Positions 39,311 through 63,708 of a stretch of DNA of 64,000 nucleotides are shown piece after piece. Source of the DNA: Bilabrum cf. latius. Its lineage: Eukaryota. How positions within the stretch are numbered: position 1 is the first letter of the stretch; each line of letters opens with the position of its first letter. Both the position numbers and the translations under genes were made by a program. The notes beneath the pieces are model-generated. The model was given only the letters and a program-made list of their open reading frames with translations, did not search any database and was not told the origin of the DNA. The stretch is from NCBI GenBank assembly GCA_965178125.1, contig OZ237746.1, positions 868,001 to 932,000 on the forward strand. The letters are read 5' to 3'.

Positions 39311-39320
39311 AGTAGTATAT

Positions 39321-39371
39321 AAAGTGATATTGTGTACCTCAATCAAAGATTGAGCTACACAATATCACTTT
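39321..39371. other. Subterminal hairpin of the virophage TIR
   Basis: AAAGTGATATTGTGTAcCTCAATC-aaa-GATTGAGcTACACAATATCACTTT: 24-bp stem, one mismatch, 3-nt loop, starting 10 nt from the terminus. Confidence 0.9.
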
Positions 39372-39987
39372 TCCCCCAGCTAATACTGGACATTTCTTCA
39401 ATATTTCTTTAGGTTTTGGTTTTCCGTGAATATATCTAAAATTTTCAAATCAATTTTTAAGAATTCCCAAGAATTCCCGATGCCCCCTACAAATACTGGA
39501 CTTCTCCGTTCAATTTTTCATAGAATGTCATTTTCATGAATATATCTAACTTTTTCACACTTTCTCCCAGCATATGAGTTTTGAGGTAGCAGGTTCACGC
39601 TTTTAAAGGGTTTTACTGGACGATTTCCCACGAACCCGAAAAAGGGGTAGGGCTGAACGGCTCAAATCCACTCCAAAAATTCCTCAAAATCCATGGTCAT
39701 CGGCGTTGTATCGCAAAACCCTTAGTTGGATAAACAGGGGGTTTTCCAAACTTTTCCAACGATTTCCCCTACTTTTCCCAGATAAGGGCAAATCCGCTGG
39801 AAATCCTTAGTAGGGCTTACAAGGCCTTCCTGATATTTTCCAATCAATTTTTAAGGATTAACAAGGGTGTGTATTCGTTTTCTCGGTGGATTGGAAAAGT
39901 CCCCAAGATGCTCGGGCTTTGCCCTCCGCTCTTTTGATATCTTTTTCAAAGATTAAAATTGAGAGATTTGGTCGGTCGAATAAAGGA

Positions 39988-42900
39988 ATGATAAATATAT
40001 GTGATTCAAACTACACGCTACCCAGGCTAAGAAGTCACCCGAAGGCTACTTCGACCGGGAGGAAACATCTCACTGACCAGCTCAAGCCATGGGGGCTGCC
40101 AGCTGTGCTGCTTCTCCGTGGAGGTTCTGCACATCTGGAGCTCCCACCACAAGTGCTGGGGGATGTATAAGACCGGCATGGTCAGGGTCAAGGCCATCTA
40201 CCTCGTCCCCAGCGCCTCCAACCCCTTCAGCTGGTAGCACTCCTGCCGGGTTCGCAGCCTGCACTACCTACGCTTGTGCTGCCGCTTGCGCCGCCTCGGG
40301 GGCCACAGCTCCTGCTGGACCCGCTCCCTGCACCACTCTCGCTTCCCGTAGCCCTGACATGTTCCGCAACTTAAGGTTGAATTGAATCGTGCGGCATGCG
40401 CTCAGCATGGAAACTCCTTTGGCGATCACTCGCGCCCAGATCCTGACCTGGGCCTCCACCGACCTGCTGCGGGCCACCCCCAGCCTCTTGCGTCGGATTC
40501 GGGCCAACAGGCGTAGCAGTCCGCGTGCCCCGTTGCCCAAGCGTCCTGTCGCCAGGACAACAAAGTCCTGGAAAACGACCTGGTTCCTGTTCTTGATGGA
40601 CTTGACCCTCTCCGTGGCCGTTCCGGGTGCCATTCGCCCTCCCATCAGCCGATGGGGAGGGATGGGCTCATTGATCTCTCGCCACTTCCTCCCGGCTGCT
40701 CGTGCTCCCGCTGCTTCGTCCTGATGATCCGACCCCACTGGTTTACTGGGAAAGTGCCTGTCCCCATTATCCGTCCGCCTATTGATCTGAGACAGTCCGC
40801 ACTTGGCATGCGGGTCCGCAGTTGTCACGTCAACATAGATTGGCTTCGCACCCTCTCTCGGGATGATGATGTCCATCGAGTAGTTCCCTTCCTCATTGTA
40901 CACCCCTCTGATCTCCTTCAGTGCCTCTCGTCCGGTCGCCTCCTGTGCGATTTTCAGAAGTCTCCGCTCCACATGATAGTGCAACCCTGTCATCCTCCTC
41001 TTGTCGTCCTCCCTGATCAGCCGATCTCCGCAGTAGCTCAAGTGAGCACACTGGTGCAGGTAGCCTTCTGCTCGGGCGCACCCGGGCATCGGGCACCTCT
41101 CTGCCATCTCCGCCTCAAAGTCACATGTCCCGTTCTCCTTTTTCAGGCGCTACTGCACCTCCAGTGTAGGCCTACTGGATGGGTTGGGGACTCCCATGCG
41201 TCTACACATCTCAAACCTGAACCCATCGTTAGGGGGCACGTGTCCCTCCTGCACCGCCGATTTCGCTGTGTACGTCGTCCGTAAAATCTCGGCTGCATCT
41301 GCCGATCGGGTGTTGTGGATGATCGTCCTTATCTCCTGCATCACTTCCCGGGCCCTGTCCGCCCACTCTTGGTCATCTCCCATGAGGCGTTCCAAAAATC
41401 CACTGATCCGCCGATACGGGTGCACTGCGAATATCTGCGAATCCGCTCTGGCTGCTGCCGCTCCAAACAGACTCTGATGGTTCCCGCCGAACTTCGGGGG
41501 CTTCTCCCCTGCCTGACGTGCTCGCATCCCCGTGAAGGACTTGAGCCCCTTCGCCTCCTGCACCCAGGGTGCGGGGTTGTGAGCTGACCTCTTCCGAACC
41601 GACATCGGGTCCATTGGTTGAACGTTGATGAACACTCCCTCTGCCTTCTTGACCTTCACCACCTCAATGCGGTTGGGTGTCTCAAGCTCGTTATCCTTGC
41701 ACTTCACCCTCGCCTCCAATGCTGCTCTGACACTCGGTATCGCCCTCATAGCCTGGAACCGTACCGGATCCCAAACCTTCTTCATGAACTGCGGTAGGCT
41801 CGCGTGCGGGACAGGCTGGTGCTTGCACACGTACTTGTCCAGCGTGAGCGGATCCTCCTTCTCCGCCGTGATCAACCCCCGCAATTGGTCCGTTACCCAG
41901 CGGACCGCCCAGTCAGCCAGCACCAACGGGGACTCACTCTGCACTCCAAACGCGTCTGTTCTCCCATTTACGGGTCCTGGCACTGTGTCTACCACTGCGC
42001 TCAGCCCGTCCATGAAATCCAGGTTGTACTCCTTCGCCAGCCCAACCAAACCTGGCACCACGTCAAGGGCCATGCCAGCAAACCGTGCCACCATCGGGAG
42101 CTTGTTGGGGATAAGCGCCAACCCTGCTCCTCCCTGAGCTAGAGGTGCCTTGCGCTAATGTCTCGTGATCTCCGCGCGCAACATGTCTCCGTTCATCCCG
42201 TAGATCCGGGAGTCGAAGCGAGTGACGGTGTCCGCGAACACCACCTCGAGTCGTTCCAGCCTCTTCATCTTGCCTCCCTCCTGCATCCCTAGCAAACTGC
42301 CTGATCTCCACAGGTGTTCCCACATGGGCTGTATGCATGACCTGTAGATGGCGACCGCCACCGAGGGCTGCAGCTGAATCACCCTCGCGATAAGATCCGC
42401 CGTGTTCTCGATCCTTTTCTCCACAAAGGCCTCGGTGAAGCCTCTGGTGCGAGCCACAGGGATGCCAGCCACCACCATACCCTCTGTCTGCACCTTGCCG
42501 TCGAGTCTCCCTCCTGCTGCATCAATCTGCAGAGCCAACGTCGTCGCGGGGTCTGGTGAGTAGTACTCCGTCTTGGTGGGCTGCAGCTGAAAGTTGTCTT
42601 TCGCCACCTCCTTCGCGAGTGTTGCCATACACGCCGCCACTACTTCCTTCGTCCCCAGCAAGAAGGCGTCGTCTGCGATGCACAGTATCGTGCACAGCGG
42701 GTGCGCTGCCCTTGTTGCCTTCAGTGCCCTATTGAACCCCAGGCAGAACAGGGCGGGACTAAGGGGCGAGCCCTGCACCACACCCTGCCTGTTCTTCAAA
42801 ATCCCAATCTTGCCGTCCGAACCCACGATTCCAGCGATGCCAGCTGACCTGAACATCGCCGCTACGAGTGGCAGTGCCTCGGACTTGTTCTGCCGCAGAG

Positions 42901-43683
42901 CCGCCATGATCGTCTGCCTCTCAATCGACCCGAATGCCACCTTCATGTCTGCATGTGCCGCCACATGCTGCGGGTGAGCGCTAAGGTACACTCTAACATA
43001 AAACGCAATAGCATCAGCCCCGCATGGTAACCCTCCCCCAAACTGCTCCGGTTTGCACGTCTCCTCCACTGCCGGTACCACCCCCTTCAGTACATACTTC
43101 AGGAGCGGCAGTAGCATGTTCGAACCCATCCCTAGGGCACGAGGTTCCACTTTTCCCGGCTTCTCGATGCCAATCCCCCTACCCAGGATAAGGAAATCCC
43201 GAGCCAGCGGAGGTACCCAACCGGATCCAACGGTCCTGTACAGTGCCATCATCTGGTCCGGTGCCTTCTCCGTGAACTTCGCCACTGCTTCCCTTGAGAT
43301 CCCCAGAAGGTCCACCCCCCTGTTCTGTTTGAATTGCTGGGTGCTGGGGATCGATTTACCCTTGCTGTCCACCTGCATCATCCCTTGGATGTCCAGGGGC
43401 GAGTCCAGATCCCGCACCTCGTCATCTTGCACTGGGCCCATCTTGCCCGAGTGCTCATCAACCAGCTGACTCTGCAGCTCCGCCTGGAGGATCGCCATGG
43501 GCTTCGCCGCAACTCCATGTCCCCCCAGCTTGGATAAGGCAGACTTGTGCTTCCCTTTCCTGGCCATCTGCTCGGCACATCGAACATCCTCCTCCGAGCT
43601 GTCCGGTAGAATCACCCCTGGGTGAATTGCCTGGATGCGCTCGATTGCCCTGTCCTCATACACCCACGTGGCATCTCTGCCTT
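39988..43683 (-). mobile_element. 5'-truncated RLE-type non-LTR retrotransposon (CRE-like) inserted in the left TIR
   Basis: TSD GAATAAAGGA at 39978-39987 and 43684-43693. It is a GC-rich block, and removing it restores a TIR subrepeat. Confidence 0.9.
40082..43683 (-). CDS. Reverse transcriptase, Zn knuckle and restriction-like endonuclease polyprotein (5'-truncated)
   Basis: Motifs QFGGG, ADMKVAFGSIER, GVVQGSPLSPALF, IADD, APLAQGGAGL, CPMPGC..H...C and MDIII...YVDVT. Four ORFs are joined by TAG at 42155, 41150 and 40268; ends at TGA. Confidence 0.85.
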
Positions 43684-44309
43684 GAATAAAGGAGACTATG
43701 AAAGAATAAATAAATTTTCCTATTAAAAATATATGTTGTAATTCCTATGATGATACCATAAAAATTAAAAGGAAAATAAAAATTAATTAGTAATTGTATT
43801 TTAAGTCCCTTTGGAAAAGTCCCCCAAAAATTGAGAGATTTGACAGGTCAATTATAAGAGACTATGAAAGAATAAATAAAATTTTCCAATTAAAATATAT
43901 GTTGTAACTCCTATGATAACACCATAAAAATTAAAAGGAAAATAAAAAAACAAATTATAATTGTTTTCTAACTCCCCAATTAAAAACACAAAAATTGATT
44001 GAAAATTTTGGACAATATAGGATACAAAGAAATATTAAAATTAAGTTCCCAATTAAAATTAAATGTTGTAATTCCAATGATGATACCATAAAAATTAAAA
44101 AAGGAAATGAAAAATCAATTAGTAATTGTATTTTAAGTTCCTTTGGAAAAGTCCCCCAAAAATTGAGAGATTTGACAGGTCAATTATAAGAGACTTAGAA
44201 AGAATAAATAAAATTTTCCAATTAAAATTTAATGTTGTAATTCCCATGATGACACCATAAAAATCAATCTATTAGTTGATTGGTCGGTATCCAACTGTTA
44301 TGCGAAGCA

Positions 44310-47300
44310 TCATACCCCACCCATTTCACAAAACGAATTTATTCTGTAGTGTCCGTGCGCAAGAGTAGAATATCCATCATCCAATACATACCTTTTATCA
44401 TCGTGTGCGGACAAACCGGTTTTCGTGCTACAAATGGTATGAATACTATGGTCAAATGAGCGAATACTTGTTTGTTTTACTGAATGTTTTTCACCAAACA
44501 AGGCGTCCCTGTATTGGTCAAACCTCAAATCTCGGATATGCTATTTCTAAATTCCTTTCGCTGTTGCTTTTGCTTTTCCACCCATATTTAAGCAATACAT
44601 TTTACTGCGTAGTCCAATGAATTCTTCAATCTAATTATCACCCGTTTCGTCCTTGAAAGCTCCAACAACCTTTTTAAGTGTTAAATCCTTCATTTGAGTA
44701 CCGCTCAAAGAATATAACCTTGAATACGCACTAAAATCAAATAATCCCTCTTTTCCCGTAACGCCCTTGATATCCCCTTTCATTGCCTTCATATCCTAGT
44801 AAAAATCCTTAGTCGTGATGTGATAACATAGACTATCTGTGTCGGTAAATAACAATTTAGACTTTCCCCCATATTCCTTTTTCATCACGTTGTAGTGGAA
44901 ATCATACATAAGCGTCTTGGAAATGTCAAGAATACACATACCAATAATAATAGGTTTATTGAAGAGTATCATAGTCTTTCCCATTTCTATCTGACATAAT
45001 TTTTCACTAATAATAGTGGCATTCTTGAAGTTGGGTTTTCTCACTGCTTTTATCAATTGTGTTTCACTGGTAATCATACGGAAATTCCTATAGTTCTAAA
45101 CATCTTCCATAGTTTTCCCAAACACGGAATTATTCATCAGCTTGTAATAATCCTTTTCAAAATCACTTTTAGCGTGTAGACGCTTGTTGCTATTGAATTC
45201 AATATATTTCCTCAGGAAATCTTCCTATTGAAACTCTAATACACGGTGGATTTTAGTAATTTTAATTCCCAAAGACGCATACAACTATAGGTTTTTGATA
45301 TGACAAATATATTTCTTTCCCCCATACAAGTTAGGTGTAAGCTTTTTGAAATCGCTATGTTTCAAATTGTTCTTTTCCATCATTTTCCCAATGTAAGGGG
45401 AAGGTTTGAAACTCGCTTTTTCCGGACACAGGGGGTATTCATTATGAGCGTCGTGTATTTCCTATGGATAATCATAGTCAAACTCTACAATACAACCCTT
45501 TTCCCCTTCAACGTCATATTTTAATAATTCGTCCAAAGACTTTTCCACCCACTCAAATTTTCCAATTGGTAGTTTCTACATCATAGCCCAGCCATATAGA
45601 TTGTTCGCATCCAAATAGGAAATGTATGAAGTTTCCTAAGATTTATCATAACCGGAAATATAAGGGTTATTGGCTTTCGCATACCGATGGGTAATCATAG
45701 AAATCCCCCCTCGCATTCCCTACTAAACCATAGTCAACATATCTCGCTATTCTTTATTAAATAATTCAATCTCAACTCCAGTATATTTTAGCATACAATT
45801 CCACGATAAACCAGGTGATGTAGAAAATCGCAAGGCTTCCACCCCAAAATCCCGCCACACGTTCTCTCGGTGTTTCTCAAAGATGTCCGCCAACAATAAC
45901 ACATCTACTTTTAAGTAGAGTTTAACATAGTCGTCGAAGGTTTTACAATTGAATGTTTTCCACATGTCTTGAGCGTAATCATAGTTTTCCTATGTAATCC
46001 CAGAGTTGGATAATCCACTGTAAAAATCATCTTTAGAAGGCAACTTAGAAGTCCTTAGTTTTGTAATATTATCATACCATTCATAAGGAAAAACTCCTTT
46101 CTTCTTCACCATAAAGGACTTATCACCATACATCTTATTAATGATTTTGAAATCATTTGTATGAAGTGATTTACCCAACCTATCTAAAGAAGAAGACAAG
46201 TGCTAATATGTATCAATAAAACGCAAATTCTTAAAGGTTAGAGTAGTAAACTTCTCACTATTCTTAGCAATGACAGAAAGTGTATCGCTTGCTTTGGAAA
46301 GGTTGGAAATTGCTTTCGTAATAAACTGTCCATCATAGGCGGAAAAATTATGAAAGCAAACCACATATTCATTTTCCTTATCCTTTGTCAAGAATTCAAT
46401 AAATTGTTCCACGCAATCTTTTTCCTCAAATACCTTATATGATTTACGAAATGTATCATACATTCCAAGGTGGGTAGCAACGTGGACATTCTCAACACTT
46501 GTTTTATCACCTCTACGGGTTTTCTTGGGAACTAAACAGGCTTCAATATCCGCATACACTACGTAGGAATGTTTGGTTTCAATCTACTATCTTCTTTTTT
46601 TACCAATAGAACAATAACTGATTATACTATCCTCGTTTTCTGGAAGAACTTTTTTCGCATACGGAGCAACAGAATATTCATTACACCTATTTTTTTTGGA
46701 ATGTTCCAAAAATGATTTCTTCAATCTAAAACTCTATAGGCACTTCTAACACAAGTAGATGGTCTATTTATTCTTATAGAAGGCATTAATATTCTTAATT
46801 AAAGCAAAATGTTGTTTTCCATCTTCTTCCAACAATAGAAGGGAAATGATGTGCTTAACTTTTCCTCTGTTACAAGGTGGGGAAGCCCGATGAAGACACT
46901 TCTCTCCATCCACAAAGGTGTAAATATCCAAGGCAAAGTCGTTCAGCTTTTCCAGTGTTTGGTAATTCTCTTCTGTATCTTGGAATGGAAATTTGATATT
47001 TCCATAGAGAATAGGAAAAATTCCTGAGTTGTATTCACTATTTTCTAAGGTATAGCTCGTTGGTCTATCTCTGTTTTTCTTCGGAAGATTAAAGTATCCA
47101 CGCAAAGCGTATTTCATACAAAGCTCATCTTTATTTTTCACGTTAATAATACATTTTTTTACCGCTAATTCTTTGGGTGTTGGGATATAACTACCAACAG
47201 ACATAGGGTTATATCTAAATGGTTTTAAATAAGACCGTTTTACTTCAATAACGCGCCAACCTGAGCCCTCCGTGGTAAAGATTTCCAAAGCCTTCTAAAG

Positions 47301-48017
47301 CGTAGTAAATAATTCATTTAGTGATAGATTAATGTTGTTTTGAGTAGCAATTACATTTGTAGAGTGTAATCTAAATTCCTATCGTTTCTTGTCTGTAATC
47401 CTTTCCATAAGAGCAATCACGTCCAATTTTACTTTCCAAGACTTGGATTTCTCAGTGAGTTCCTCCAAAGTTTTCTTAAGGTCTGGTTTGATGACAAACA
47501 AATAACCTACAAGGTCTGGTAGTGGTTCTGTCGTATCAATCACGTATTCATTTGTTTCTTTACCAAATTTCGTAGCTTTCCTCATATCCACCTCAATATC
47601 TTCCTTGATATTGCTTGTATCAACGTTGGAAAGCGTATCTGTTTGTTCCAGTTCATAATAAGTCTTTTCCAAGATTTCTGTTTTGCTTCTAAGTGATGGG
47701 ATTTCATTTCCAAGCGCTCTGTATCGTTTCAAAGCCGCCACTAAATCTTTTCTGGGAAGTCTCTTCTACAGAGTATTAATCTGCTCATACCACTCATTTA
47801 CGTTCTTCTTGGATTTCAAAGACACTGGGATAAAATATCCTTCCTATTTCATCTTAGAAAGTGCTAATTGTTTTTCCTTGAAGGTGGGCTCTGGGCTTTC
47901 CGCCGTTTCCTCCTTTTCCTCAACGAGTTCGTTTTCCAATTCTTTCTCGATAAGTTGTTGTTCAATCTTTTCCTGAAGGCTTTTCAACTATTCTGGCGTC
48001 AATTTTGAGATGTCCAT
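44310..48017 (-). CDS. polB: Protein-primed family B DNA polymerase (pPolB), 1,235 aa
   Basis: Motifs YADIE, FHNFSAYD, KKKGVFPYEW, DANNLYGWAM, KLMNNSVFGKT, FTDTDSL and DDKRY. Seven track ORFs lie in one frame interrupted only by TAG; ends at TGA. Confidence 0.95.
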
Positions 48018-48076
48018 TTTGATGTTATACTATAGTGTGAGATAATACTTAAGCCACGGATGACGTGAGCCAGCCA

Positions 48077-48084
48077 TCAATTTT
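48077..48084 (-). promoter_or_regulatory. AAAATTGA mimivirus-type early promoter motif upstream of pPolB
   Basis: Exact octamer on the sense strand about 60 nt before the ATG; the same motif occurs at 51308-51315 (GIY-YIG) and 61842-61849. Confidence 0.6.
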
Positions 48085-48362: not shown

Positions 48363-49430
48363 TTAGTCATACGCAAACATTTTCCAAGCCTGTTTTAGGG
48401 CATTCTTCTTGGATATTCCTTTTCCTCTTAAAATGGACGCCATTTTCATAACTCTTGAACGTTTGGTTTCACACTGACATTGACCTCCAAATAATTCCAG
48501 ATACATCCCCGATACTGGGTCATTCGTATGCGAATGGATTTCTTTCATAATTGGTTTTCCAACTGTTTTAGTTGCTAAATCCCAACCTTCTTTAAAATCT
48601 TGTCCAAAATCCCTTTCTGTGTTCTACTTATGTTTTTCCTAATTTTTCATTAAGGCGTTTCTGACATCTTCCGGTAAATCATCTAAACCTCTCCCAAACC
48701 ATTTGGAAAAATAACCAGCCACATCAGTAGCAGCATTAGCCACTCTCTTAGTAAATCCCGATACGTTCTTAGCAATACTTTCCACATCCTACATAATGAA
48801 GTCATTTACTTTAGGAGTTAAGAAGCCGTTCGCTCTAAGTACATCTTGAATGAATTTTTGACAATTCAACGAGAAGGCACGATACTAATAAAAATTGTAT
48901 TCTCCTATTTTCTTTAAAGTGGTCTCATATAATTCCCTAACTGTTTTCTAAGGTTTTCCATTAATATTTACTTCCATAGTTTGAGTTTTTTTATTCATGG
49001 AAAATCTTGGGGACAAATTCACCCTCTCATTTTTTTCTAAATATATTTTCCTACCACCTCCAAGGTTCAACTCTAAGGCTAAATGAAAAAAATCATTGTA
49101 TCCGTGTTTATTCTTTAACTTTTTCATTTTTCCCAAGGTTATCCAGTTGAGCAATCTATTTATCGCACCACTAATAGGGGTTCTAATTACTTTCATAGCT
49201 ATAATTGTTCTATCCCCGTATTGCTGTAGTGTTCTCTAGACTTCGTTTGAATTCCCATACACAACCCCACCCTTAAGCTGTTGCGCCAGCTAACTGCGCC
49301 GAGAGGGGGTGCTTCGCAAACCATCTTTTAATTTATCTTGTTTCCTCATATATTCCTCAACCTTTTTAATAATATCTTCGTGAGTGGTTTTCTTTTTCTT
49401 TTTCCCAACCAACTAAGAGAAACTCTACAT
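48363..49430 (-). CDS. Conserved virophage protein with FFHL...LEKN...NCQ motifs (permuted papain-like; possibly Sputnik V21-like)
   Basis: 355-aa frame open except for TAG; the His...Asn-Cys arrangement suggests a permuted NlpC/P60-like fold; ends at TAA. Confidence 0.6.
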
Positions 49431-49820: not shown

Positions 49821-50438
49821 TCATAGACGAGAACCAAGACCAAATGTTTTACGGACGAATTCCTCCAGTTGCTAAAAGGATGAATAAACACAATACTAAC
49901 TCTAATGTAACCCAGCGATTAGATTAGTTCTTGAGCGTTCCACAGACAATAAGTCCCCCGATTTTTTACCCTCACGGATTTCCTCAAAAAGACTGTGAGA
50001 AGGCACACACACAAAAATTGAACTTTCCTTAAATAAATCTTTCGCTAATTCCAACGAACCAACCATAACTATCAGACGTCTTGATTTCTTCGTGAGCCAA
50101 TCCGCTTTAATTTTTTCATACACTAATCTTGATTGGGAATAATAAAAGAGACGATGTGTGCTCTCATCACCGTCAACCAACATCTTCTCCATTTTCTATT
50201 TTTCCTGTCCTGAGATTTGAGCATTTACGCATTCGTCTAAATCAATAATTAGCGTGTCCTTATCCACCGCTTCTAGGGAGCGACACAAAGTAGTTTTCCC
50301 AGAGCCTTTTGGAACAACCACGCAGGATTTCTGTTTCTAAGTTCCGTCTTTCGTCCACCAAGAATATAGACACTTGCTTCCTGTATAAGCTAAAGGGGCT
50401 AAAGTCCCAGCAACCATTACAGCAGTTGATACTGACAT
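49821..50438 (-). CDS. Small P-loop NTPase/kinase-like protein (205 aa)
   Basis: Walker A PKGSGKTT followed by IIDLD; open only with TAG read-through; ends at TGA. Confidence 0.7.
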
Positions 50439-51798: not shown

Positions 51799-54700
51799 TA
51801 ACATAAATAGTAATATTAGAACGAGTCGGGGCGGGATCTGGGATCGGGGGCTTGCGGGCCGGGGCCCGCTCCGGCGCGGGGCGGAGAACTTAGTTTAGTT
51901 CATTACTATCATACAGAATGTGCGCGCGCGCCGCCATCGCAATCGCGCGGGGCGCGAGCGGCGGCGGGAAGTGCCTGCCACCCCGAGTTGTCCGTTCGGC
52001 TACCACGTTTCGAAAAGTATCTCGACTAAAACGCAAGGGATCGCTTATTCCATGCTTATTGCTACGCTCCGATAGCAGTTAAATGAAACGCTGCCGGTGG
52101 AATTTCCATGCACCCTCGAAACAAAAAGCCTTAGGGATTCGCGCGCCCGGATAAACTCCTCCCTGCCGCGCCCTGATCCGATCCCTTTCGCGCTCCACTC
52201 GATCCGATTCATTCCACCCCTCGAATGCGCCGGTAAGCGACAACATTGTTTGATTTGCATTATAACATCATGATTTCTGCTAGCCGATCGGCGGCCCATG
52301 TCGTGCCCGGCTCTGGAGGAGCACTGAGGTGGCGCGCAAACGCTGTCATCTCCAATCGTGAGCCCAATCCCCGCAGCATCCATGCAACGAGCAACGAAAT
52401 ATTACTTGATTGAATACCAAACATGCAATTCCATGGCGTGATAGGCGTCAGAGCATTGGTGAGTCGAGTGAGCGGACCAACGGCAGCTTCCAACGCCACG
52501 AGCCTCGAGGCACAACGCGTCCACGCTCCAGTCAGTTCCCATCGCAGATGCAAGAGCGCTTTAAACAAAATCAAGTAAGACATAGATTCGATTGCCTGCG
52601 TGTGCTGCTGCTTTGATCGGGGAGGGAGGGCTCCAAGCGGCCGGCTCGCCCTCCCTCCGCCTTGCCGCTGCTGAATCCGACCGCGGGAGCAATCCAAGCT
52701 TCAGGAAGACGACGACGCGCCGGCACAATGGACTCTATGAAGCTATTCATGGCAAATTGCATCGCCGCCGCCGACCGCCGGCAGGCGTTCTGTACCTCGT
52801 GAGCTCATTCAATGCTGACATCTGCGAACTAGCGCCTCCAGCACCCCATCAGCAGCACCGCGTAGCGCCACGGCGGCAGCCAGTGGCATCCTACGGCTCT
52901 CATGCATCTCCTGACTCTGCATTGCCTCCATCGTGGCGGGCACGCCCATTGTGCCTGACGCTCTCCTGCTTGCGACCATCGGCATCGCTGGCGCCTGGCT
53001 GCGACCCCCCGGCACGCGACGGCAGCTCTCCACTCCCGCTACCCGGCCCGCCACCCACTCCCATCTACAAACCCATGGGGGGCGGGCTTAGGTCCTTTCC
53101 CTCTTGTTAACATAAACAGTAATATTAGAACGAGTCGGGGCGGGATCCGGGATCAGGGGCTTGCGGGCCGGGGCCCGCGCCCGCACCGAGCGGAGAACTT
53201 AGTTTAGTTCTATGAGATAACATTCAATGGGCGCGCGCGCCGCCATCGCAATCGCGCGGGGCGCGAGCGGCGGCGGGAAGTGCCTGCCACCCCGAGTTGT
53301 CCGTTCGGCTACCGCGTTTCGGAAAGTATCTCGACTAAAACGCAAGGGATCGCTTATCCCTGACCAATTAGTATGATCATCAATAAAGGAATAAGGTAGC
53401 CCTTGGTGCCTGTTGGATTCTCCCACGAAACAAAAAGCCTTAGGGATTCGCGCGCCCGGATAAACTCCTCCCTGCCGCGCACTGATCCGATCCCTCTCGC
53501 GCTCCACTCGATCCGATTCATTCCACCCCTCGAATGCGCCGGTAAGCCAATAGATTGTTGTATTTGCATTATGACATCATGATTTCTGCTGGCCGATCGG
53601 CTGCCCATGCCGTGCCCGGCTCTGGAGAAGCACTGAGGTGGCGCGCAAATGCTGTCACCTCCAACCGCAAGCTCAATCCCCGCAGCATCCATGCCACGAG
53701 CAACGAAATGTTACTTGATTGAATATCAATCACGCAATTCCACGGTGAGGTAGGCGTGATAGCATCGATGAGTCGAGTGAGCGGACCAACAGCAGCTTCC
53801 AACGCCACGAGCCTCGAGGCACAACGCGTCCGCGCTCCAGTCAGCTCCTATCGCAGATGCAACAGCGCTTTAAAACAAAATCAAGTAAGGCATAGATTCG
53901 ATTGCCCGCGTGCGCTGCTGCTTTGATTGGGGAGGGAGGGCTCCAAGCGGCCGGCTCGCCCTCCCTCCGCCCCGCCGCTGCTGAATCCGACCGCGGGAGC
54001 GATCTAGGCTTCAGGGAGACGACGACGCGCCGGCACAATGGACTCTATGGAGCTATTCATGGCAAATTGCATCGCCGCCGCCGACCCCCGGCAGGCACTC
54101 TGTACCTCGTGAGCTCATATCGCGCTGACATCTGCGAGCTAGCGCCCTCCAGCGCCCCGGCTGCAGCACCGCGAAGCACCACGGCGGCAGCCAGTTGCAT
54201 CTCACGGCTCACCTGCATCTCCTGACTCTGCGTTGCCTCCATCGTGGCGGGCACGCCCATTGTGCCTGACGCTCCCCTGCTTGCGACCATCATCATCGCT
54301 GGCGGCAGGCTGCGACCCCCCGGCACGCGACGGCAGCTCGCCACTCCCGCTACCCGGCCCGCCACCCACTCCCATCTCCAAACCCATGGGGGGCGGGCTT
54401 AGGTCCTTTCCCTCTTGTTAACATAAACAATAATATTAGAACGAGTCGGGGCGGGATCCGGGATCGGGGGCTTGCGGGCCGGGGCCCGCTCCCGCACCGA
54501 GCGGAGAACTTAGTTGAATGCTGTAAGATTACATTCAATGGGCGGGCGCGCCGCTGCCGCAATCGCGCGGGGAGCTTGCGGCGGCGGGAAGTGCCTGCCA
54601 CCCCGAGTTGTCCGTTCGGCTACCGCGTTTCGGCTCTTATCTCTGCGATCGGGACATATCTCGCTAATCCGGCGGGTAACTTTGTGCTACCATGCCAGCG

Positions 54701-55729
54701 AATCCGAACGCAACGGTATGCTCGGCGATTCTCACTCGAAACAAAAAGCCTTAGGGATTCGCGCGCCCGGATAAACTCCTCCCTGCCGCGCCCTGATCCG
54801 ATCCCCCTCGCGCTCCACTCGATCCGATTCATTGCACCTCTCGAATGCGCCGGTAAGCCAATAGATTGTTGTATTTGCATTATAACATCATGATTTCTGC
54901 TAGCCGATCGGCGGCCCATGTCGTGCCCGGCTCTGGAGGAGCACTGAGGTGGCGCGCAAACGCTGTCACCTCCAATCGTGAGCTCATTCCCCGCAGCATC
55001 GATGCCACGAGCAACGAAATCTTACTTGATTGAATATCAAACACGCAATTCCATGGCGGGGTAGCCGTGCTAGCATCGGTGAGTCGAGTGAGCGGACCAA
55101 CAGCAGCTTCCAACGCCACGAGCCTCGAGGCACAACGCGTCCGCGCTCCAGTCAGCTCCCATCGCAGATGCAACAGCGCTTTAAAACAAAATCAAGTAAG
55201 AAATAGATTCGATTGCCTGCGTGCGCTGCTGCTTTGATTGGGGAGGGAGGGCTCCAAGCGGCCGGCTCGCCCTCCCTCCGCCCTGCCACTGCTGAAATCG
55301 ACCGCGGGAGCGATCTAGGCTTCAGGGAGACGACGACGCGCCGGGACAATGGACTCTATGAAGCTAATCATGGCAAATTGCATCGCCGCCGCCGACCGCC
55401 GGCAGGCACTCTGTACCTCGTGAGCTCATATAATGCTGACATCTGCGAGCTACCGCCCTCCAGCACCCCGACAGCAGCACCTCGAAGCACCACGGCGGCA
55501 GCCAGTGGCATCCTACGGCTCACGTTCATTTCCCGACTCTGCGATGCCTCCATCGTGGCGGGCACGCCCATTGTGCCTGACGCTCTCCTGCTTGCGACCA
55601 TCGGCATCGCTGGCGCCTGGCTGCGACCCCCGGGCACACGACGGCAGCTCTCCACTCCCGCTACCCGGCCCGCCACCCACTCCCATCTCCAGACCCATGG
55701 GGGGCGGGCTTAGGTCCTTTCCCTCTTGT
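51799..55729. mobile_element. Head-to-tail trimer of a GC-rich, apparently non-coding ~1.31-kb element inserted in the MCP gene (units 51799-53107, 53108-54418, 54419-55729)
   Basis: Each unit runs TAACATAAA...GGTCCTTTCCCTCTTGT; lengths are 1309, 1311 and 1311. A GT is shared at the junctions, and exact removal restores the MCP frame. Confidence 0.9.
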
Positions 55730-57052
55730 GATAGACAATTGGTTAGAACCGTTTGAACCATTTGTCTAATCTACATCTAGGCTCAAATCCTTGGCGGGGT
55801 CGATGGAGAGAATTGCGCCTGATAGCACCCTTTGTTGATATCCAGGCTATTCAGGCTATATTCCATTATCGAAGCGTCGCATAGCCCATTCCGCGTATTG
55901 CTATTCAAGTCCGTTGCTTCTGGATAAGTCCCATAGCTATTGAGGTGATGCGTCGGCGAGTAATCCAGATTGGTTATTCATTTCGATACTTATTCCCTCA
56001 ATTCCAAGGAATGTGTTTCCCTAATCTACTGAGACGCTGGTAGGTGAGCGTCGGGCAAACACAAATAGACGAGATGGAACTGAATTGCTAAGTTTAATAT
56101 TGTTGTTCGTAAGAGTTGCTGTTGTTCCTGCGCTGATTGTTGCACCATAGCTTTGAGTATATGAAGTCATTTCAAAAATATCATAGGAGACCTGTTTTGG
56201 AAGGACAAACCCTGTTTTAGGGGTAATCTATTCAAGGTATAAATAGGGGTTCTTGACATCTACCGACTAAACGGAAGCAGTTAAGTCCTATTGTGGAATA
56301 CGAGACCACACGGTTCTACTCAGTTGTGACCAATTGATATCTAAGGAAAGAGTTTCTAAACCGAAAATGGCTGGTTGTTCCTATTTACTTTCGTAATGGA
56401 AAGGTGGGCAAAGAACCGCCTCAGTACATTCAAAGACAAGAACACGATTTTGCGTTTGACCTGCGGGCACTGGAGTGTTATCCATTTGAACCAAGTTATA
56501 AAATCCACTTCCTCTTGCGGGTTGGTCCTAAAGCACGTCTTCATACGAAGCAAGAGCGTTATTTGTAGCCTAACTCATCATCGCGTATGAAGGCACATTG
56601 TCGCGTCTATACACACTATCAAGGCAATTCACACGATGAACATCATCATCTAAGCAATGGGACACTACGTCCATTATTTCCGCGTTATTCTAAGTAAAGC
56701 GAATGTTATTGATACCAACTGTCTGTGTTGCAATGGAGCGATTAAGTGGATATGAGCGTGGAGCATCGTAATCTGGTGTAAATGGTACGAGAGCACCTGC
56801 GGTTTGATTATTCACGGAAAAGGTAATGGAAAAACGGCAAGACACGTATGCGCGGCGGCATAAACCTACACCTGAAGGCATACTAATATTCCAATTCACA
56901 CCTGAATTATAATTACCGGCTGAACCAGATGGAGCGTATCTGCGAAACGTTCGGTTCTCATAACCTTCTTGAACTTCATACGGCTTCGGTTGTACATCTA
57001 ATGTAGCGGGTGATACTTTGACTGGCTGAAGGGCAAAGGTATTCAATGACAT
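55730..57052 (-). CDS. MCP: Virophage major capsid protein, 5' part (441 codons; 599 aa when joined)
   Basis: The N-terminus (YEVQEG...NWNISMPS...LCRRAYV...ITF...DAPRSYPL...INN) follows the Sputnik-type MCP pattern; many in-frame TAGs. Confidence 0.88.
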
Positions 57053-57130: not shown

Positions 57131-58246
57131 TCAAAGTCCTTTCCGTTTCTTAAATAAAAACTTCACACTCACACTTCCGTGGCGTAAATAAAGAGGTCTT
57201 AGATTTGAATAATTGTCTTTCCAATATAGATTAAACTAAATCCTATCTACTGAATGTGTATCTAAAAAATCAATTTCGTGGAGAATATGGGGCTGGTATT
57301 GAAGAACCTACTAATTAACTGTTTCAGTGTCATCTAATACACAATCCATATCCACTAATAAACTCTCGGTTCCTGAACCTGAATTTTGAACTGTATTAGT
57401 GGATTGTCCATAGGCGGATTTCTAGGATATTGCCTCACTCCTCACTGGAAGACTTGAAGATGTGAAAACTATTCCACGGAAAACCTAAAACTACACTAAA
57501 CTCCCTCGTTCCTAGGTCATCATTAATCTGTAGTCTCCTGATGGATTTCCCTCGAAGTATGCCTAAGGTTCATATTTTCCAACAGAACTGCCATCATCAA
57601 ATAAAACATTCGTTCCTAAGGATTTGAATAGAATACTGGCGTATAAGTCGTCATCTTGGATATCCATTCGTTCCATAGGAAAACCCGTCATCAGTTCGTT
57701 AAGGGCTTCATTCAACACTAATTTAAATTTTTGTCCTGAGTTTTCCTCGTCGTAATCGGGGTTTGCTACTAAACTGAACTTTCCATCTTTGAATAGTAAA
57801 ACCGGAACTGATGTAATATCCGCTGATAAAGCGTTCTATAGGGTTTCGTTGAATAAATCAACAAAATGCTACACGGAATACATATAATAATAAGGAACAA
57901 ACTACATAGGATTGGAAAAAGATGGTTGGTTTTCCCCTGTTAACTAGGGTCTCCATATAATACTTTCCGTCCATAATTGTACTCCACTTTCATCTGTAAT
58001 GCTTATTCTATACACCGTTTGATTAGGATTTGAAGATGGATTTTTCACTTTATCGGTTTCTATGTGTGGAACCCATAAAGGTATTGAATTGGTGCTTATG
58101 GAAAACCGGAATACTGACATCGTATAATCACCAACATCCTTATCTAATAATGGCTACTTGCGGGTTTCGCTATAGGTCGCTGGTTGGAAAGTATCTTCGT
58201 TATTTCGTATGTTTGCGGTAATGTAAAATCGGTCTGGAGAACTCAT
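57131..58246 (-). CDS. Virophage minor capsid (penton) protein, 371 aa
   Basis: FYITANIRN...ATYSETR..PL...DYTMSVFRFSISTNSIPLW at the N-terminus and VKFLFKK at the C-terminus; lies directly upstream of MCP; absent from the track because of TAGs. Confidence 0.85.
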
Positions 58247-58297: not shown

Positions 58298-58789
58298 TTA
58301 AGATGGTGTGATGAGTGAACCTGACACTAAGGACTTCCAACTAGATGTTGAAGAACTTCCAATCGCCACATAGACATCGTTGTCGCTTCCATTATACACT
58401 AAAGCCCCCTTGAACTTTCGCTCTGGTGACGTATTAATTGGGACAGAAGCATCAGCAAGCGTTGCTCCAGCAACCTCACTCAGCCCAACAACACCCTCTT
58501 GAGAAGTCTTGAATGAACCAACTAGTGAAATATCGCATCTTTCTCCTTCTTCGCTCATACTCATTTGACAACCCGCAGACGCTCCGTTTTTCCCAAATCG
58601 TAAAACTGTGTCTCCCCACGCCATATATGGTTCTCCGTCCGTGAACTCAATACTTGGATTGCCTATGACTGCTCCCGTAGAGTTAGTAATTGCGGACACT
58701 TTAATTGCGTCGCTACTCACAACATTACACGTAATAGTTTGAGACATCAGGTCTAGGCTGTTCTTAGATAGAAGATTGGAAACTGACAT
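58298..58789 (-). CDS. Hypothetical virion/fibre-like protein (163 aa)
   Basis: Complete ORF next to the penton, rich in predicted beta strands; function is inferred from position only. Confidence 0.6.
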   Translation of the reverse strand: MSVSNLLSKNSLDLMSQTITCNVVSSDAIKVSAITNSTGAVIGNPSIEFTDGEPYMAWGDTVLRFGKNGASAGCQMSMSEEGERCDISLVGSFKTSQEGVVGLSEVAGATLADASVPINTSPERKFKGALVYNGSDNDVYVAIGSSSTSSWKSLVSGSLITPS

Positions 58790-58829: not shown

Positions 58830-58915
58830 AAAAGATGTAAATAAGAGGTTTTGGTCAATCTTTTCCTAAAAGATGTATATAAGAGGTTTTGGTTAATCTT
58901 TTCCTAAAAGATGTA
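58830..58915. repeat. 38-bp tandem repeat (about 2.2 copies) with an ATCTTTT-cct-AAAAGAT hairpin
   Basis: aaaagatgtaWataagaggttttggtYaatcttttcct occurs twice and overlaps the stop of the upstream gene. Confidence 0.8.
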
Positions 58916-60155
58916 ATAGTTCCATAGCAACCTAATGGTGAATATCTTTAGTGCTTCCTTTTACTTTCTTGGCTACATTCATTGCTGTATCATAGATAAT
59001 CCTTTTTCCACCTCGTAATCCTTTTCCGGTCTTCTTCTTCTTTTTCCCTCTTGGTTTTCCTATCGGTATTCTACTTTCTTTTACAGACATAGAACCAGGT
59101 TGTGCTATTCCGTGCGGTGGAGAAAATCCGGTAAAACGTTCTACAGGTTTGCTTGCCCGTTTTCCCAAGTCCATTTTCGGCCTTTCCGTTGGACCTCCCT
59201 CGGGTCTGTATCGTTTTCCCTCTCTTTTTTTAAACATCGGCGAACCTTCCCAAAACCCGGGTGGTCTTGCGGGACTTTTCCAAGCAACTGAGGTGACTTT
59301 TTCTGTTGTTGTGTCGTCGTCGTCAATAGCTTGCCCCCTTTCTTCTCCTTGTATGCTCCTTAATAAATCATCCACTTCGCTAGTTTTACTTTTGGATGAC
59401 CCACTCTGTTCTGGAAAATGTTGAAGTAAAGATTGTTGTCCATCAGTTCTCCGTGAGAACTATTGTCCCTATTCTTCTTTTAATATCCTACTTTGTTGCT
59501 ATGAAAGTGGTTGTCCTTTGAAAATCCTTTCGCGTGCTCGTCGTAAAATTTGACCTCTCTATCTCTTGTTTAAACTCTCTGTAGAATTTTCTAATTCTCC
59601 AAAATCTTCTTGAAATGTGTTAGTTGTTGGTGTTCTCATAGGTGTTTGCTGGAAATCAATTCCCAACATTCCCTACGGTATTCTTTTTCCGGATGCGTCC
59701 TAAATAACTTTTCCTAATTCTAAGAGTTGTTTTCTATCCTCAGTTGGAACTCTCTACAGTCCTTCGTATCCTTTCCTTTGAAATCTCTCAATATTTACAT
59801 ATTGTCGGGCGAGTTGTTGCTTCATTTGTGGGGACATATTGATATTACCAACAAAATCCTTTAATGCTTTAATTGCTGGGCTTACATTTTTACCCTCAAT
59901 AATACCTTTCATTATACCAGATATTGATTTAGATATGATTTCCTCGTTGCTTTGGTCTGCCTATTTTCTCTACGCTGGAGTTCCATACCTTCCACTTTCT
60001 TTTAATCGTTCAATTTTTGCCCTTTTCCTTATAAAATCACTATATTCTGTTTCTAAATCTACGTCGTCCCTTGCCTGTAAATCTAACATTTTAGCATTGT
60101 CCAGTTCCCTCTCTAGGGCTTGCTGAATAAGAGCATTCACTTTAGCAGTTTTCAT
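58893..60155 (-). CDS. Hypothetical basic virophage protein (420 aa)
   Basis: ORFs 59970-60155 and 58932-59375 form one frame with TAG read-through; ends at TAA. Confidence 0.7.
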
Positions 60156-60454: not shown

Positions 60455-60483
60455 AGAAACTTTTATAAAAAGTTTGACCAAAA

Positions 60484-61389
60484 TTATAGAAGGTATGCCT
60501 ACTTCTCTCCAATTAAATACCTCGGGTAATTCCTGTGGACACAGACCCACCTGGAAGGCATTTTTAAGACTTTAGAGATTTCTTGTTTCTCAAGTCCTAT
60601 ATAATTCTTTAACAAATACCTTAGAGAATGTGCGGATGAACACTAAGGGAATATAACGAACTTATGACTTTCCGCAAGAATAATTCGGGTACTTTTATAA
60701 TTTGTGGATAAATGAGAAGTCATTAGAATTGACGTATTTGAGTGGCGACCAACTTGTAAAATATCGTCCTATAAATCTATCAAAGCCTTTTTTACGTCTT
60801 TATCTCTTACTGTATCTATATCGTCTAAAATAACTAAACAATCCTTTAATTCTGTGTGGCAATCAATAGGGTTTTCCACTAATTCCTAATTTAATTCAAT
60901 TCTACTTAGGTTCTTCAAATCATCTAAGGCCTTATCTACCCCAACCCTAGAAAATAAAATAATACGTCGGTCTGGAAATAATCTATTGTAATTCTTAGCG
61001 TATTTACCCACCCAAGTACTTTTCCCACTTCCTGCTGGAGCTGTGATATATACCACTTCCCTTTGAATATCTGGATTTGGAAGACACTAAAATTCACCCT
61101 ATTTTAATGTAATCTCTTTATGTTTCTTTTCCTATGCTTTCTCATATAAATATTTTATGTCTTCATCTAGGGGTTCGACCTGTTTGATAAGGTGACGTGC
61201 CAATAAATCCATTTTCCTCTGGGGAAATCTTTTCCCGGTAAGTGATGATACTTGAAAATCCTAGAATGTAACACTATCATCTCCAAATTGGTTGTCTGTG
61301 TTTTCCGCTGTGTATAAAATACGTTTTCCGTGTGTGTCATATGCAATAGGAGTTGATTTTGTAGTTTCCTTCCAAGAAAAATGTGCCAT
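60484..61389 (-). CDS. FtsK/HerA-family (A32-like) genome packaging ATPase, 301 aa
   Basis: Walker A APAGSGKST, Walker B LVILDDID, and GRH, TSH and SRWV motifs; ends at TAA. Confidence 0.92.
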
Positions 61390-61464: not shown

Positions 61465-61803
61465 TTAAACAGTTTCTAGATTTTGTGGGGACTTTTCCAT
61501 TTCCTCTAGAACCTATGTTTGTAACTCTTTCCTTCGTTTTGGATTAATAGAATTCCGCAATACTCTTACATCACTTGACAACAATTTCCACTAAGTATAT
61601 ATTTTACCTCCATTCACCGGACAAATCTGTTGTCCTATCTCAAGCAATAATTCTATGTGCTCCTCAGTTTCTTCCTTTTTGGTTTTGAGTAGATTATACT
61701 ACTTCTTAAGGTCATAATATGCTTTCCTTGCTATTAAATAATCTTTATATACTTCCATATACCTTTTCCAATTACCATATTTCCTTGGTCGTCCTGCTGA
61801 CAT
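61465..61803 (-). CDS. Hypothetical viral protein (112 aa) starting MSAGRPRKY
   Basis: Open with TAG read-through; AT-hook-like GRPRK; upstream AAAATTGA. Confidence 0.6.
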
Positions 61804-61980
61804 TTTTTTAATTGTGTCTGTGTATCGTTGGGGAAAATGTATCAATTTTTCTTGGGGACTTTTTAATAGCGATTTGTTTTCCACAAATTCCAAAACGGAT
61901 TTTGTAGAAATACTTCTACGCTTAAATAGTGGTTAAGAGATGCTTTTATCTCCCCCAATATATCATTCTATAATAAATCT

Positions 61981-62535
61981 ATGGATTATGCTCTTAGCGA
62001 TAGTGATATTCGTGTTCTCCTCCAAACTCCACCAAATATTAAGGGGTTTCTTCCTACGTCGGTAAACATCGTTCCATATACAGAATTAGGATAGTACAAT
62101 AGTATTGATGGATTATTTAGTCGTTGTAATTGTTGTATCATTCTATACCAAGAAGAAATAAACTCTGGTCATTGGGTTTGCTTATTTAAGCGTAATAAAA
62201 CAATATACTTCTTTGACAGTTACGGAATTCGTCCTGATAGGCAATAGAGTACGATGAGTGACGCCGTCCGGAAACGTTTTTATGAAGACCCTGAACTAAT
62301 ACATTTAATGTATCATTCTCCGTATAAGATTGACTATAACCCATATTAGTTTTAGGCGGATGGAATGGATATAGCAACCTGCGGGAGACATTGTATAGTT
62401 CGTCTTTGGAATAGGGGAAAAAACGCTGATTAGTATAAAAAGTGGGTGGATAAGGTTTGTAAGAAACATACATTAAATCCTGATGAATTAGTGTATTTAT
62501 TGACGTATCATCTTAATGATATTAAGTCCCCATAA
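61981..62535 (+). CDS. Virophage maturation cysteine protease (adenain/Ulp1-like), 184 aa
   Basis: YALSDSDI, GHWVCL, YFFDSYG..PD and NPY*F*...TCGRHC, with TAGs at the expected Gln positions. Confidence 0.92.
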
Positions 62536-62683
62536 AATGCTGATGCTTCTTGCTGTTAATATGGTGTGATTTATTGTATACTTTATATTTCCCACCACAA
62601 GGGCAAAGAATTGTTTGCTTTAAAGTATCTTTATTTTTCTTGTAATATTCTTGATTATATTCCTGTGTATTTCTCACGGGCAT
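62522..62683 (-). CDS. Small zinc-finger protein (CPCGG...HH...H)
   Basis: YYKKNK...CPCGGKY...NKSHHINSKKH pattern, common in virophages and NCLDVs. Confidence 0.6.
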   Translation of the reverse strand: MPVRNTQEYNQEYYKKNKDTLKQTILCPCGGKYKVYNKSHHINSKKHQHFMGT

Positions 62684-62715
62684 ATCTCTGTTATATACTA
62701 AGAACAAAGTACTTA

Positions 62716-63639
62716 ATGGAAAAGTATTTTGACGAAGTTCATACTCCTAGAAACCCTGAGCGGTCATATAGAAAAGTTTAGGCCTATGGAAATGCGGATA
62801 TTTACTCTGCAGATTTAATTGACCTCTCAAGATTTGCTGAGTATAATGATAATTATAAATGGATACTCTCATTAATTGATATTATTTCAAGAAAAGGGAT
62901 TGCTATACCACTCAAGAATAAACTAGCGACTACTGTGTTAAAAGGCTACAAATAGATTGTGGAAGGCTTGGGAAAACAACCTAATAAACTGTGGACTGAC
63001 TAGGGAAAAGAGTTCTATAATAAAACGTTTAAGAAATATCTTTCCAAACACAATACTCACCTGTACTCAACTTTTTCCGGAAAAAAGGCGGTTGTTGTGG
63101 AACGCTTCAATAGAACTATTTTAACCAAATTATTTAAGTCGATGGCTAAGAATAAGACACGACGATGGATTGATTTATTAACTGATGTTATTGTTTCCTA
63201 TAATAATACTGAACATAGCACCATTAAGATGACACCTAACGAATTGTGGGAAAAGGAAAAAGATTTCCAACCAAGTATTAAACGTCACTAGAAAAGCCCT
63301 ATTAAATTCAAGAAGGGCGATATCGTACGAGTAATGTACCCTAAGAAAACATTTGATAAAGGGTATTTACCTAATTGGAGTTGGGACGTCTTCAAAATTA
63401 ATAAGGTATTCTTGACAAATCCAACAACCTATACTTTGACGAATGGGGAAAAGAAGAAATTAGAGGGGAAATACTATGATTGGCAATTAAAGAAAACCGT
63501 GTAGCCTTTTGGGGTCTATAACATCGAAAGAGTTGTAGATACTGAAATGAAAGATGGAATTGAGTATAGTTTTGTGAAATGGGTGGGGTATGATGCTTCG
63601 CATAACAGTTGGATACCGACCAATCAACTAATAGATTGA
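62716..63639 (+). CDS. Polinton-type rve (DDE) integrase with C-terminal chromodomain, 307 aa
   Basis: SADLID, IDIISR, WTD*GKEFYN, VERFNRT, YNNTEHSTIKMTP, KGYLPNWS and VKWVGYDASHNSWIP. Confidence 0.95.
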
Positions 63640-63708
63640 TTTTTATGGTGTCATCATGGGAATTACAACATTAAATTTTAATTGGAAAATTTTATTTATT
63701 CTTTCTAA
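63569..63708. repeat. Inner part of the right TIR
   Basis: Reverse complement of 44195-44334; the match stops abruptly at 63709. Confidence 0.9.

Follow-up and report, generated by a model that had tools for sequence, protein, structure and literature searches.

The 64,000-nucleotide stretch of DNA analysed here (the window; contig OZ237746.1, positions 868,001 to 932,000, of the Bilabrum cf. latius assembly GCA_965178125.1) very probably carries an endogenous virophage, about 17 kb long without its insertions, in which a Sputnik-type capsid module is joined to a mavirus/Polinton-type module of protein-primed family B DNA polymerase (pPolB) and rve integrase, and which resides in nuclear DNA of a flagellated eukaryote in whose code TAG has become a sense codon and translation ends at TAA and TGA. 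The AT-rich block of the window extends from about 39.3 to 63.7 kb (approximately 31-40% GC, interrupted by two GC-rich blocks), with a fall in GC at position 39300, and the virophage itself occupies 44195-63708 at about 35% GC within eukaryotic DNA of 57-72% GC. Its gene set is enclosed by inverted repeat arms of 140 nt that are 100% complementary (Table 1). Translation of the AT-rich block with TAG as Gln gave 14 open reading frames (ORFs) of 112-1255 amino acids (aa), and translation with the standard code gave gene fragments only. A virophage-type double jelly-roll major capsid protein (MCP) was recognized by its Pfam and Sputnik V20 matches, its gene being split in this copy, and pPolB and rve integrase were found between the terminal inverted repeats, as in the mavirus/Polinton-type module. 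Sputnik- and mavirus-type virophages are placed in the class Maveriviricetes.

In-frame stop codons of the virophage genes

In the 14 ORFs (4709 codons) 107 TAG codons were counted in frame, and neither TAA nor TGA occurred; in the two off-frames of the same ORFs, 155 TAG, 290 TAA and 274 TGA were found, TAA and TGA together being 3.6 times as common as TAG. Seven ORFs terminated with TAA and seven with TGA, and TAG was present in 13 of the 14, orf163 being the exception. With TAG included, the element has 251 putative Gln codons, 43% of which are TAG. TAA and TGA remained stops throughout, with no in-frame occurrence across the 4709 viral codons and 9753 codons of ORFs outside the virophage body. 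The pattern is real and far beyond chance, and the earlier reading of this DNA from the sequence alone (the sequence-only reading), in which the core viral genes were described as interrupted by TAG, never by TAA or TGA, and as ending in TAA or TGA, was correct on each of these points.

Re-calling of the genes with TAG as Gln gave products of the lengths of their homologues. The pPolB product of 1255 aa compares with about 1250 aa for the best matches in the library, and the penton protein, ATPase, orf205 product and protease aligned end to end with metagenomic relatives. No frameshift had to be assumed to read any of the genes.

Amino acid assigned to TAG

For pPolB, the alignment was made with 108 library representatives, taken from 150 that were listed among 27421 matches and kept at a length of 1100-1400 aa (42 were dropped). 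The decoding test used pPolB columns with at least 54 residues, standard-code tblastn high-scoring segment pairs (HSPs) to IMG/VR loci L001-L033 for the other proteins, and HSPs to the metagenome loci L036 and L040; five metagenome loci (near-duplicates or fragments) and TAG codons of the subject sequences were left out. Homologue residues were thereby available for 83 of the 107 TAG codons.

At the TAG columns Gln had the highest mean BLOSUM62 score (1.12), followed by Glu (0.71) and Lys (0.39), and it ranked first in 1991 of 2000 bootstraps. The Gln score was 1.06 at CAA columns and 1.37 at CAG columns, and each sense codon represented by 15 or more columns, used as a control, was decoded to its true residue (59/59). 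The mean fraction of Gln was 0.228 at TAG columns, 0.239 at CAA, 0.292 at CAG and 0.03 elsewhere. The residues facing TAG, whose tabulation had been proposed with the sequence-only reading, are accordingly headed by Gln and are not random.

A sense codon for some other residue (Glu, Lys, Tyr or Leu) would leave the counts of stop codons as they are. Glu and Lys scored next to Gln, and some TAG columns face a conserved E, R or K. We nevertheless regard this assignment as highly improbable, given the bootstrap result, a Gln score at TAG equal to that of the canonical Gln codons, scores of -1.4 for Tyr and -1.7 for Leu, and 21 sites at which one of the two sequences, window or L036, has TAG and the other has CAA/CAG. 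Comparison with homologues thus supports Gln as the residue that TAG encodes in the element, which is the pattern of NCBI translation table 15.

Five individual TAG codons had been proposed to fall at Gln sites, and three of them do so. Gln is present in 87 of 107 homologues at pPolB aa 951 (nt 45227), in 63 of 108 at pPolB aa 834 (nt 45578), and in all four IMG/VR homologues and L036 at protease aa 125. The proposal failed for the first TAG of the protease (aa 123), where the homologues have K, H, D and K (Gln 0/4), and for integrase aa 96, where only 2 of 21 homologues have Gln. At a further pPolB site, aa 625, Gln is the commonest residue (32/108).

TAG codons in ORFs outside the virophage body

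Beyond the virophage itself, five long ORFs were examined, which encode a HYDIN/CFAP65-like ciliary protein, an FkbM-type methyltransferase, proteins of 3441 and 1337 aa, and the reverse transcriptase (RT) of a retroelement. Of their 9753 codons 50 are TAG, and none is TAA or TGA; their off-frames hold 74 TAA and 359 TGA. The RT ORF lies inside the left end of the virophage and not in flanking host DNA. Since host ORFs carry in-frame TAG without TAA or TGA, the recoding is the cell's own, the cell being a flagellated eukaryote.

Recoding might instead be borne by the virus, as in TAG-recoded phages, with a suppressor of its own in a standard-code host. TAG makes up 12% of the putative Gln codons in the five ORFs compared with 43% in the element, as would suit a virus-borne system, and a virophage with an ochre tRNA is on record (PMC6905037). 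No tRNA gene was found in the window or the element, and the five ORFs, that of the inserted retroelement among them, share the TAG-only pattern, so that virus-borne recoding is given very little credence here.

With the recoding assigned to the cell, the virus would rely on the host for its ribosomes, for a tRNA that reads UAG and for a release factor to which UAG is no stop. Where the viral genome is AT-rich, the change of CAG to TAG by C-to-T drift would be silent, and the share of TAG among its Gln codons may have grown in this way to 43%, compared with 12% in the host. A standard-code cell would make shortened products from 13 of the 14 ORFs, so that the lineage would be tied to hosts with the TAG code.

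Metagenomic and IMG/VR relatives

A scan of metagenomes with the MCP alignment gave seven loci (L034-L040) from six records, with MCP identities of 55-62% and 44-48% GC, so that the search for related copies, another proposed check, was productive. In their homologues of MCP, penton, ATPase, protease, orf355, orf205 and orf420, all in-frame stops are TAG. L036, which is gene-dense, has 28 in-frame TAG, 0 TAA and 0 TGA in these homologues, and TAG is present in 21 of its 23 listed ORFs, including all gene-sized ones. At the 55 aligned sites where the window has TAG, L036 has a Gln codon at 15 and TAG at 8 (together 23/55); conversely, at 28 sites of TAG in L036 the window has CAA/CAG at 6 and TAG at 8 (together 14/28). 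Because these relatives carry in-frame TAG only, often opposite CAA or CAG of the window, the code is a trait of the lineage and not a product of decay, and extension of the code-adapted reading to an environmental clade is well supported.

The 8 TAG positions common to the window and L036 were considered as a sign of ancestral recoding and were rejected as such; the Gln-Gln columns are distributed 8/15/6/20 (odds ratio about 1.8), a pattern that could arise if each virus had chosen its codons independently. L036 has another replication module at 118-3662, with a DUF5906/VapE-like helicase and a short pPolB of 613 aa, and no integrase was found within the 13.8 kb of it that were examined.

Among the pPolB-related IMG/VR loci, 30 of 33 have no in-frame stop in the pPolB match. 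In L032 (8172-9567), the one locus with clear damage, pPolB is interrupted by shifts of frame and by TAA and TGA codons at sites where Y, L, M and E stand in the aligned protein; it is a decayed or low-quality copy, in contrast to the window. A search of IMG/VR with MCP queries, P0001 among them, found no close relative; together with the fragments obtained under the standard code, this agrees with the earlier expectation that standard-code gene calling would miss the element.

If the element were a decayed provirus or an assembly artefact, its in-frame stops would be damage or errors of a collapsed multi-copy assembly. Spurious stops are reported from collapsed assemblies of endogenous viruses (Bellas et al., PMC10120064), the family is multi-copy in sequencing runs, and this copy does carry inactivating insertions (see below). 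On such an account TAG would not be the stop found in 107 of 107 cases where the off-frames are dominated by TAA and TGA, nor would genes free of frameshifts, alignment of TAG with Gln, and repetition of the TAG-only pattern in independent metagenome contigs be expected, and the truly decayed pPolB locus L032 shows what damage looks like. We therefore regard decay or artefact as next to impossible. The view that the virus is adapted to the code rather than decayed is upheld by these observations together with homologue-like gene lengths, the TAG-only host ORFs and a metagenomic sister clade with TAG codons of its own.

State of this copy and of its siblings

The N-terminal part of the MCP gene ends at 55728 and the C-terminal part resumes at 51796, with 3931 bp between them. 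The insertion consists of three tandem units of about 1310 bp (53-66% GC) with a mutual identity of 88-90%; because of this 10% divergence, the units had already diverged when they arrived. Its junction has an ambiguity of 2 bp only, the unit is multi-copy in public runs, and it had no match in Rfam. The retroelement in the left end (3696 bp, 57-64% GC) lies between 10-bp direct duplications GAATAAAGGA at 39978-39987 and 43684-43693. Its RVT_1 ORF stays open into the adjoining virophage repeat, and a C-terminal Cys/His cluster and a PD..D..K-like stretch were noticed, which suggest that it may be a restriction-like-endonuclease non-LTR (long terminal repeat) element.

Logan contigs of four public runs (X1, X2, X4 and X6; two coded organisms, two studies) were compared with 54417-64000. 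In X1 and X2 a contig end joins 55728 straight to 51796 (a loose end), by which the reading ...S-I-T-L-R-V... is restored, and because of this junction to the MCP C-terminal part, sibling copies with an uninterrupted MCP gene exist, in two coded organisms. In all four runs contigs extend beyond 63708 into a reverse-complemented copy of the 166-bp repeat of the left end, so that the element in the window has a right end that is either truncated or broken by the adjacent GC-rich DNA, which is multi-copy. Other joints indicate siblings that lack orf112 or differ in orf420, and a further GC-rich junction was seen inside the penton gene. In X2 and X4 depth was about 30 for exact-match contigs compared with 400-600 for contigs diverged by 2-5%, depth not being copy number; this hints at a multi-copy virophage family in the public runs. 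The stretch 63709-64000, with a summed depth of about 600-1000 in X2 and X4 and joints and loose ends of its own, probably belongs to a repetitive element of the host and not to unique flanking DNA. The heptamer ATGGGGT at 39303-39309 and 63723-63729 was considered as a 7-bp target-site duplication and was not accepted: the sequences next to the two heptamers do not form an inverted repeat, this copy is truncated on the right at 63708, and its outer boundary on the left is uncertain.

Integration is borne out by the perfect inverted repeat and by the insertions of host type within the element. It must be recent on the time scale of neutral decay, given that perfect repeat and the lack of frameshifts and of TAA or TGA stops in the remaining genes. 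Intact siblings may be capable of reactivation.

Points weighing against a recoded, active virophage

Five points count against the reading of the element as a working virophage written in a host code of TAG = Gln. First, pPolB has TAG in columns where the homologues conserve another residue: E in 90/108 at aa 785, R in 86/108 at aa 994 and K in 64/107 at aa 1177. Second, two proteins that have Gln at each TAG site, P0001 (MCP 88% identical) and P0002, were dropped as evidence. P0002 shares 98.6% identity with L035, and at 6 of 6 of these sites the L035 DNA reads TAG; both proteins were probably translated by a gene caller aware of TAG = Gln and are thus no independent evidence. Third, the recoding of the host genes was recognized by the presence of in-frame TAG, not by residue identity. 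Fourth, a tRNA scan of the whole window gave no tRNA gene, and no release-factor gene was present in the window. Fifth, this copy is inactivated, with MCP split, a retroelement in the left end and the right end cut, and no capsid can be made from it. The sequence-only description of a code-adapted virus is supported, with the caveat that this particular copy is inactivated.

P0002 was also noted in comparison with L035 (6039-7799), being an MCP of full length in which Gln stands at the TAG codons of this nearly identical DNA. Some entries of the large protein collection that contains P0002 were thus apparently predicted under TAG = Gln, a point to be borne in mind wherever proteins of this kind serve as evidence for a code.

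Features of the window

The features of the AT-rich block are listed in Table 1. In the protein library the best pPolB match had 49% identity over a protein of about 1250 aa. MCP matched the solved structures of Sputnik V20 (3j26_A, E 3e-26) and mavirus (6g43, E 5e-7), and the penton protein that of the Sputnik minor virion protein (3j26_N, E 2e-13). For the ATPase, a candidate packaging ATPase of the FtsK/HerA type, Pfam gave weak, sub-threshold AAA matches only and tblastn against the 'phages' collection gave no match; homologues with identities of up to 43% were found in 5 IMG/VR virophage-like loci, and in these as well as in L035 and L036 they adjoin capsid genes. The protease, a candidate adenain-like cysteine protease, had no Pfam match, and a search of PDB sequences gave spurious WD40 matches only; its His, Asp, Gln and Cys residues are kept in 5 of 5 homologous HSPs (4 IMG/VR loci and L036). 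Integrase homologues were present in 21 of 33 IMG/VR loci. An Rfam scan of the whole window gave no match.

Table 1. Features of the AT-rich block (positions in the window; TAG, in-frame TAG codons)
Feature	Position	Strand	Remarks
Left terminal region	39311..39987		degenerate terminal-repeat copies; 3 AAAAATTGA motifs; 51-nt palindrome 39321-39371
Retroelement in terminal repeat unit	39988..43683	-	RVT_1 E 5e-11; RT ORF with 4 TAG
Left terminal repeats	43684..44334		units of ~166 bp, 4 copies; end in inverted-repeat left arm 44195-44334
pPolB	44310..48077	-	1255 aa; 26 TAG; stop TGA; PF03175 E 1e-23
orf355, conserved virophage protein, function unassigned	48363..49430	-	9 TAG; 52% identical to L034-L036; no Pfam match
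orf205, P-loop protein	49821..50438	-	5 TAG; weak AAA_24 match; 55% identical to L034-L036
GIY-YIG nuclease	50502..51260	-	5 TAG; PF01541 E 4e-7
MCP, C-terminal part	51322..51796	-	3 TAG; stop TGA; aligns with C-termini of P0001, P0002, P0004, and L034-L036, L039
Insertion splitting the MCP gene	51797..55727		three tandem units of ~1310 bp
MCP, N-terminal part, Sputnik V20 type	55728..57052	-	14 TAG; PF21915 E 2e-22; PF22031 E 1.5e-26
Penton (minor capsid) protein	57131..58246	-	13 TAG; PF21507 E 2e-10
orf163	58298..58789	-	0 TAG; no Pfam match
orf420, basic Gln-rich protein	58893..60155	-	10 TAG; N-terminal 156 aa 55-56% identical to L035, L036
Packaging-type ATPase	60484..61389	-	8 TAG; Walker A GSGKST, Walker B ILDD; 58% identical to L035, L036
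orf112, accessory gene	61465..61803	-	absent from some sibling copies (61463 joined to 61880 in runs X1, X2, X6)
Cysteine protease	61981..62535	+	5 TAG; His (GHW), Asp (FDSYG), Gln (FQ, codon TAG), Cys (TCG)
orf116	62522..62872	-	1 TAG; C-terminal half 42-44% identical to L035, L036
rve integrase with C-terminal chromodomain	62716..63639	+	5 TAG; PF00665 and PF00385
Inverted-repeat right arm	63569..63708		copy stops at 63708

The palindrome at the far left edge of the AT-rich region is near-perfect (90%), and 39955-39987 matches the 166-bp terminal repeat unit. At aa 396-407 of MCP (55850-55885) lies an insertion of about 11 residues, NGIQPEQPGYQQ, with two TAG codons, which none of the six database homologues has. 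Two tandem 38-bp units occupy the intergenic stretch 58825-58900 upstream of orf163, and a 30-bp tandem repeat (7 copies) lies at 37192-37466 within a GC-rich ORF to the left of the element. TATAGTA and TATATA-like boxes stand at most 25 nt before the ATG of several capsid-module genes and may represent a late-type promoter.

Comparison with known systems

A full-text literature search found no paper on a virophage with TAG = Gln genes; it did not extend to the supplements of PMC6905037, PMC10120064 and PMC8547959, in which further recoded hosts or elements may be listed. Endogenous viruses sharing the code of a recoded host have already been published for another virus group and another code: Polinton-like endogenous viruses of Streblomastix strix use the TAA/TAG = Gln code of their host, from which a long association was inferred by the authors (Bellas et al. 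2023, PMC10120064). Both are endogenous double-jelly-roll viruses in a non-standard nuclear code of the host. As far as that account goes, in the S. strix viruses TAA and TAG are both reassigned and the MCP falls in a Maverick/Polinton group of Metamonada, whereas here MCP is of the virophage type, TAG alone is reassigned and TAA ends 7 of 14 ORFs; gene-dense environmental relatives with the same code are a further difference of the present case.

The closest biological parallel is provided by the endogenous mavirus-like elements (EMALEs) of Cafeteria, described as AT-rich virophages with retrotransposon insertions in a GC-rich flagellate (Hackl et al. 2021, PMC8547959). Like the EMALEs of Cafeteria burkhardae (PMC8547959; PMC10945749), as described there, the element is an AT-rich virophage in a high-GC flagellate with inverted ends, pPolB and rve integrase, and, again like those of PMC8547959, it is multi-copy with variants and invaded by a retrotransposon. 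Unlike in mavirus-like EMALEs, the capsid is nearer to that of Sputnik than to that of mavirus, as seen from the structure matches above, and the genes use TAG = Gln ('genetic code' occurs 0 times in PMC8547959). Compared with the EMALE retrotransposons, the retroelement here showed RVT_1 only and no tyrosine recombinase, so an Ngaro identity is not supported.

MCP V20 and the penton protein of the Sputnik virophage (PDB 3J26) are recognisably homologous to those of the element. To our knowledge Sputnik has neither pPolB nor rve integrase and uses the standard code.

An ochre-suppressor tRNA (anticodon TTA, for TAA) was described in virophage clade 22 and taken as a hint of reassignment in the host (Paez-Espino et al. 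2019, PMC6905037). Like the present element, it hints that some virophages live in recoded hosts; in the clade 22 virophage, as reported in that source, the tRNA stands by itself with no in-frame stops demonstrated, whereas here there is no tRNA and TAG recoding is direct in the coding sequences.

Helper virus and promoter motif

The window contains 12 copies of the motif AAAAATTGA, all at 39450-61850; whole-window shuffles gave 0.48, a value to be read against a heterogeneous composition. In the virophage body 6 copies were found, compared with a mean of 1.18 under a first-order Markov model, and 2 of 500 simulations reached 6. Copies stand just upstream of pPolB, GIY-YIG and orf112 (three copies), and six are in the terminal repeats. 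AAAAATTGA contains the core AAAATTGA, which is described as the core of the Mimiviridae early-promoter motif (PMC6163669) and as lying upstream of the polymerase in the Phaeocystis virophage-like PgVV (bioRxiv 10.1101/2022.07.28.501842). No enrichment of AAAATTGA was found in L036.

This modest enrichment offers a lead that the element would replicate with a giant virus, probably a mimivirid, which would itself tolerate read-through of UAG. A 2026 catalogue (PMC13524828) contains giant viruses for which alternative codes gave the best gene calls, an Imitervirales genome (code 6) among them, and because nucleocytoviruses can use stop-reassigned codes, a helper of this kind is plausible. The cases in that catalogue are giant viruses, not virophages, and a TAG-only Gln code is unmentioned in its section 8.

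A self-sufficient integrating virus of the Polinton/Maverick type would need no giant virus, and 'virophage' would then denote capsid ancestry only. The full gene set of pPolB, rve integrase, inverted ends, two capsid proteins, ATPase and protease suits such a virus, as do the lack of any observed helper and the lack of motif enrichment in the relative L036. Its MCP and penton protein, by contrast, match virophage-specific Pfam families and Sputnik structures, and the motif AAAAATTGA, confined to the element in the window, exceeds expectation in the virophage body and stands upstream of pPolB, GIY-YIG and orf112. Self-sufficiency is on balance unlikely, although it deserves more weight than the alternatives considered above.

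Helper dependence would make the element one partner in a three-partner system with UAG = Gln, composed of a flagellate host, a mimivirid-type giant virus tolerating or using UAG as sense, and a code-locked clade of endogenous and free virophages (TAG 43% of Gln codons), in which the code would be a host-range barrier and intact copies would be an inducible defence against giant viruses as in Cafeteria. We put this scenario forward tentatively, its chances being somewhat below even.

Implications

Virophages depend on the genomes of a cell and of a giant virus, and a virophage written in a reassigned stop codon is a natural experiment that shows a change of code passing through nested parasites. 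The finding predicts giant viruses that would live in hosts with UAG = Gln. Recoded elements and their environmental relatives fragment under ordinary gene calling, so that standard pipelines miss them, and the code is a marker by which environmental virophage contigs can be linked to a host lineage. If the three-partner system is true, the genetic code would act as a barrier to the host range of virophages.

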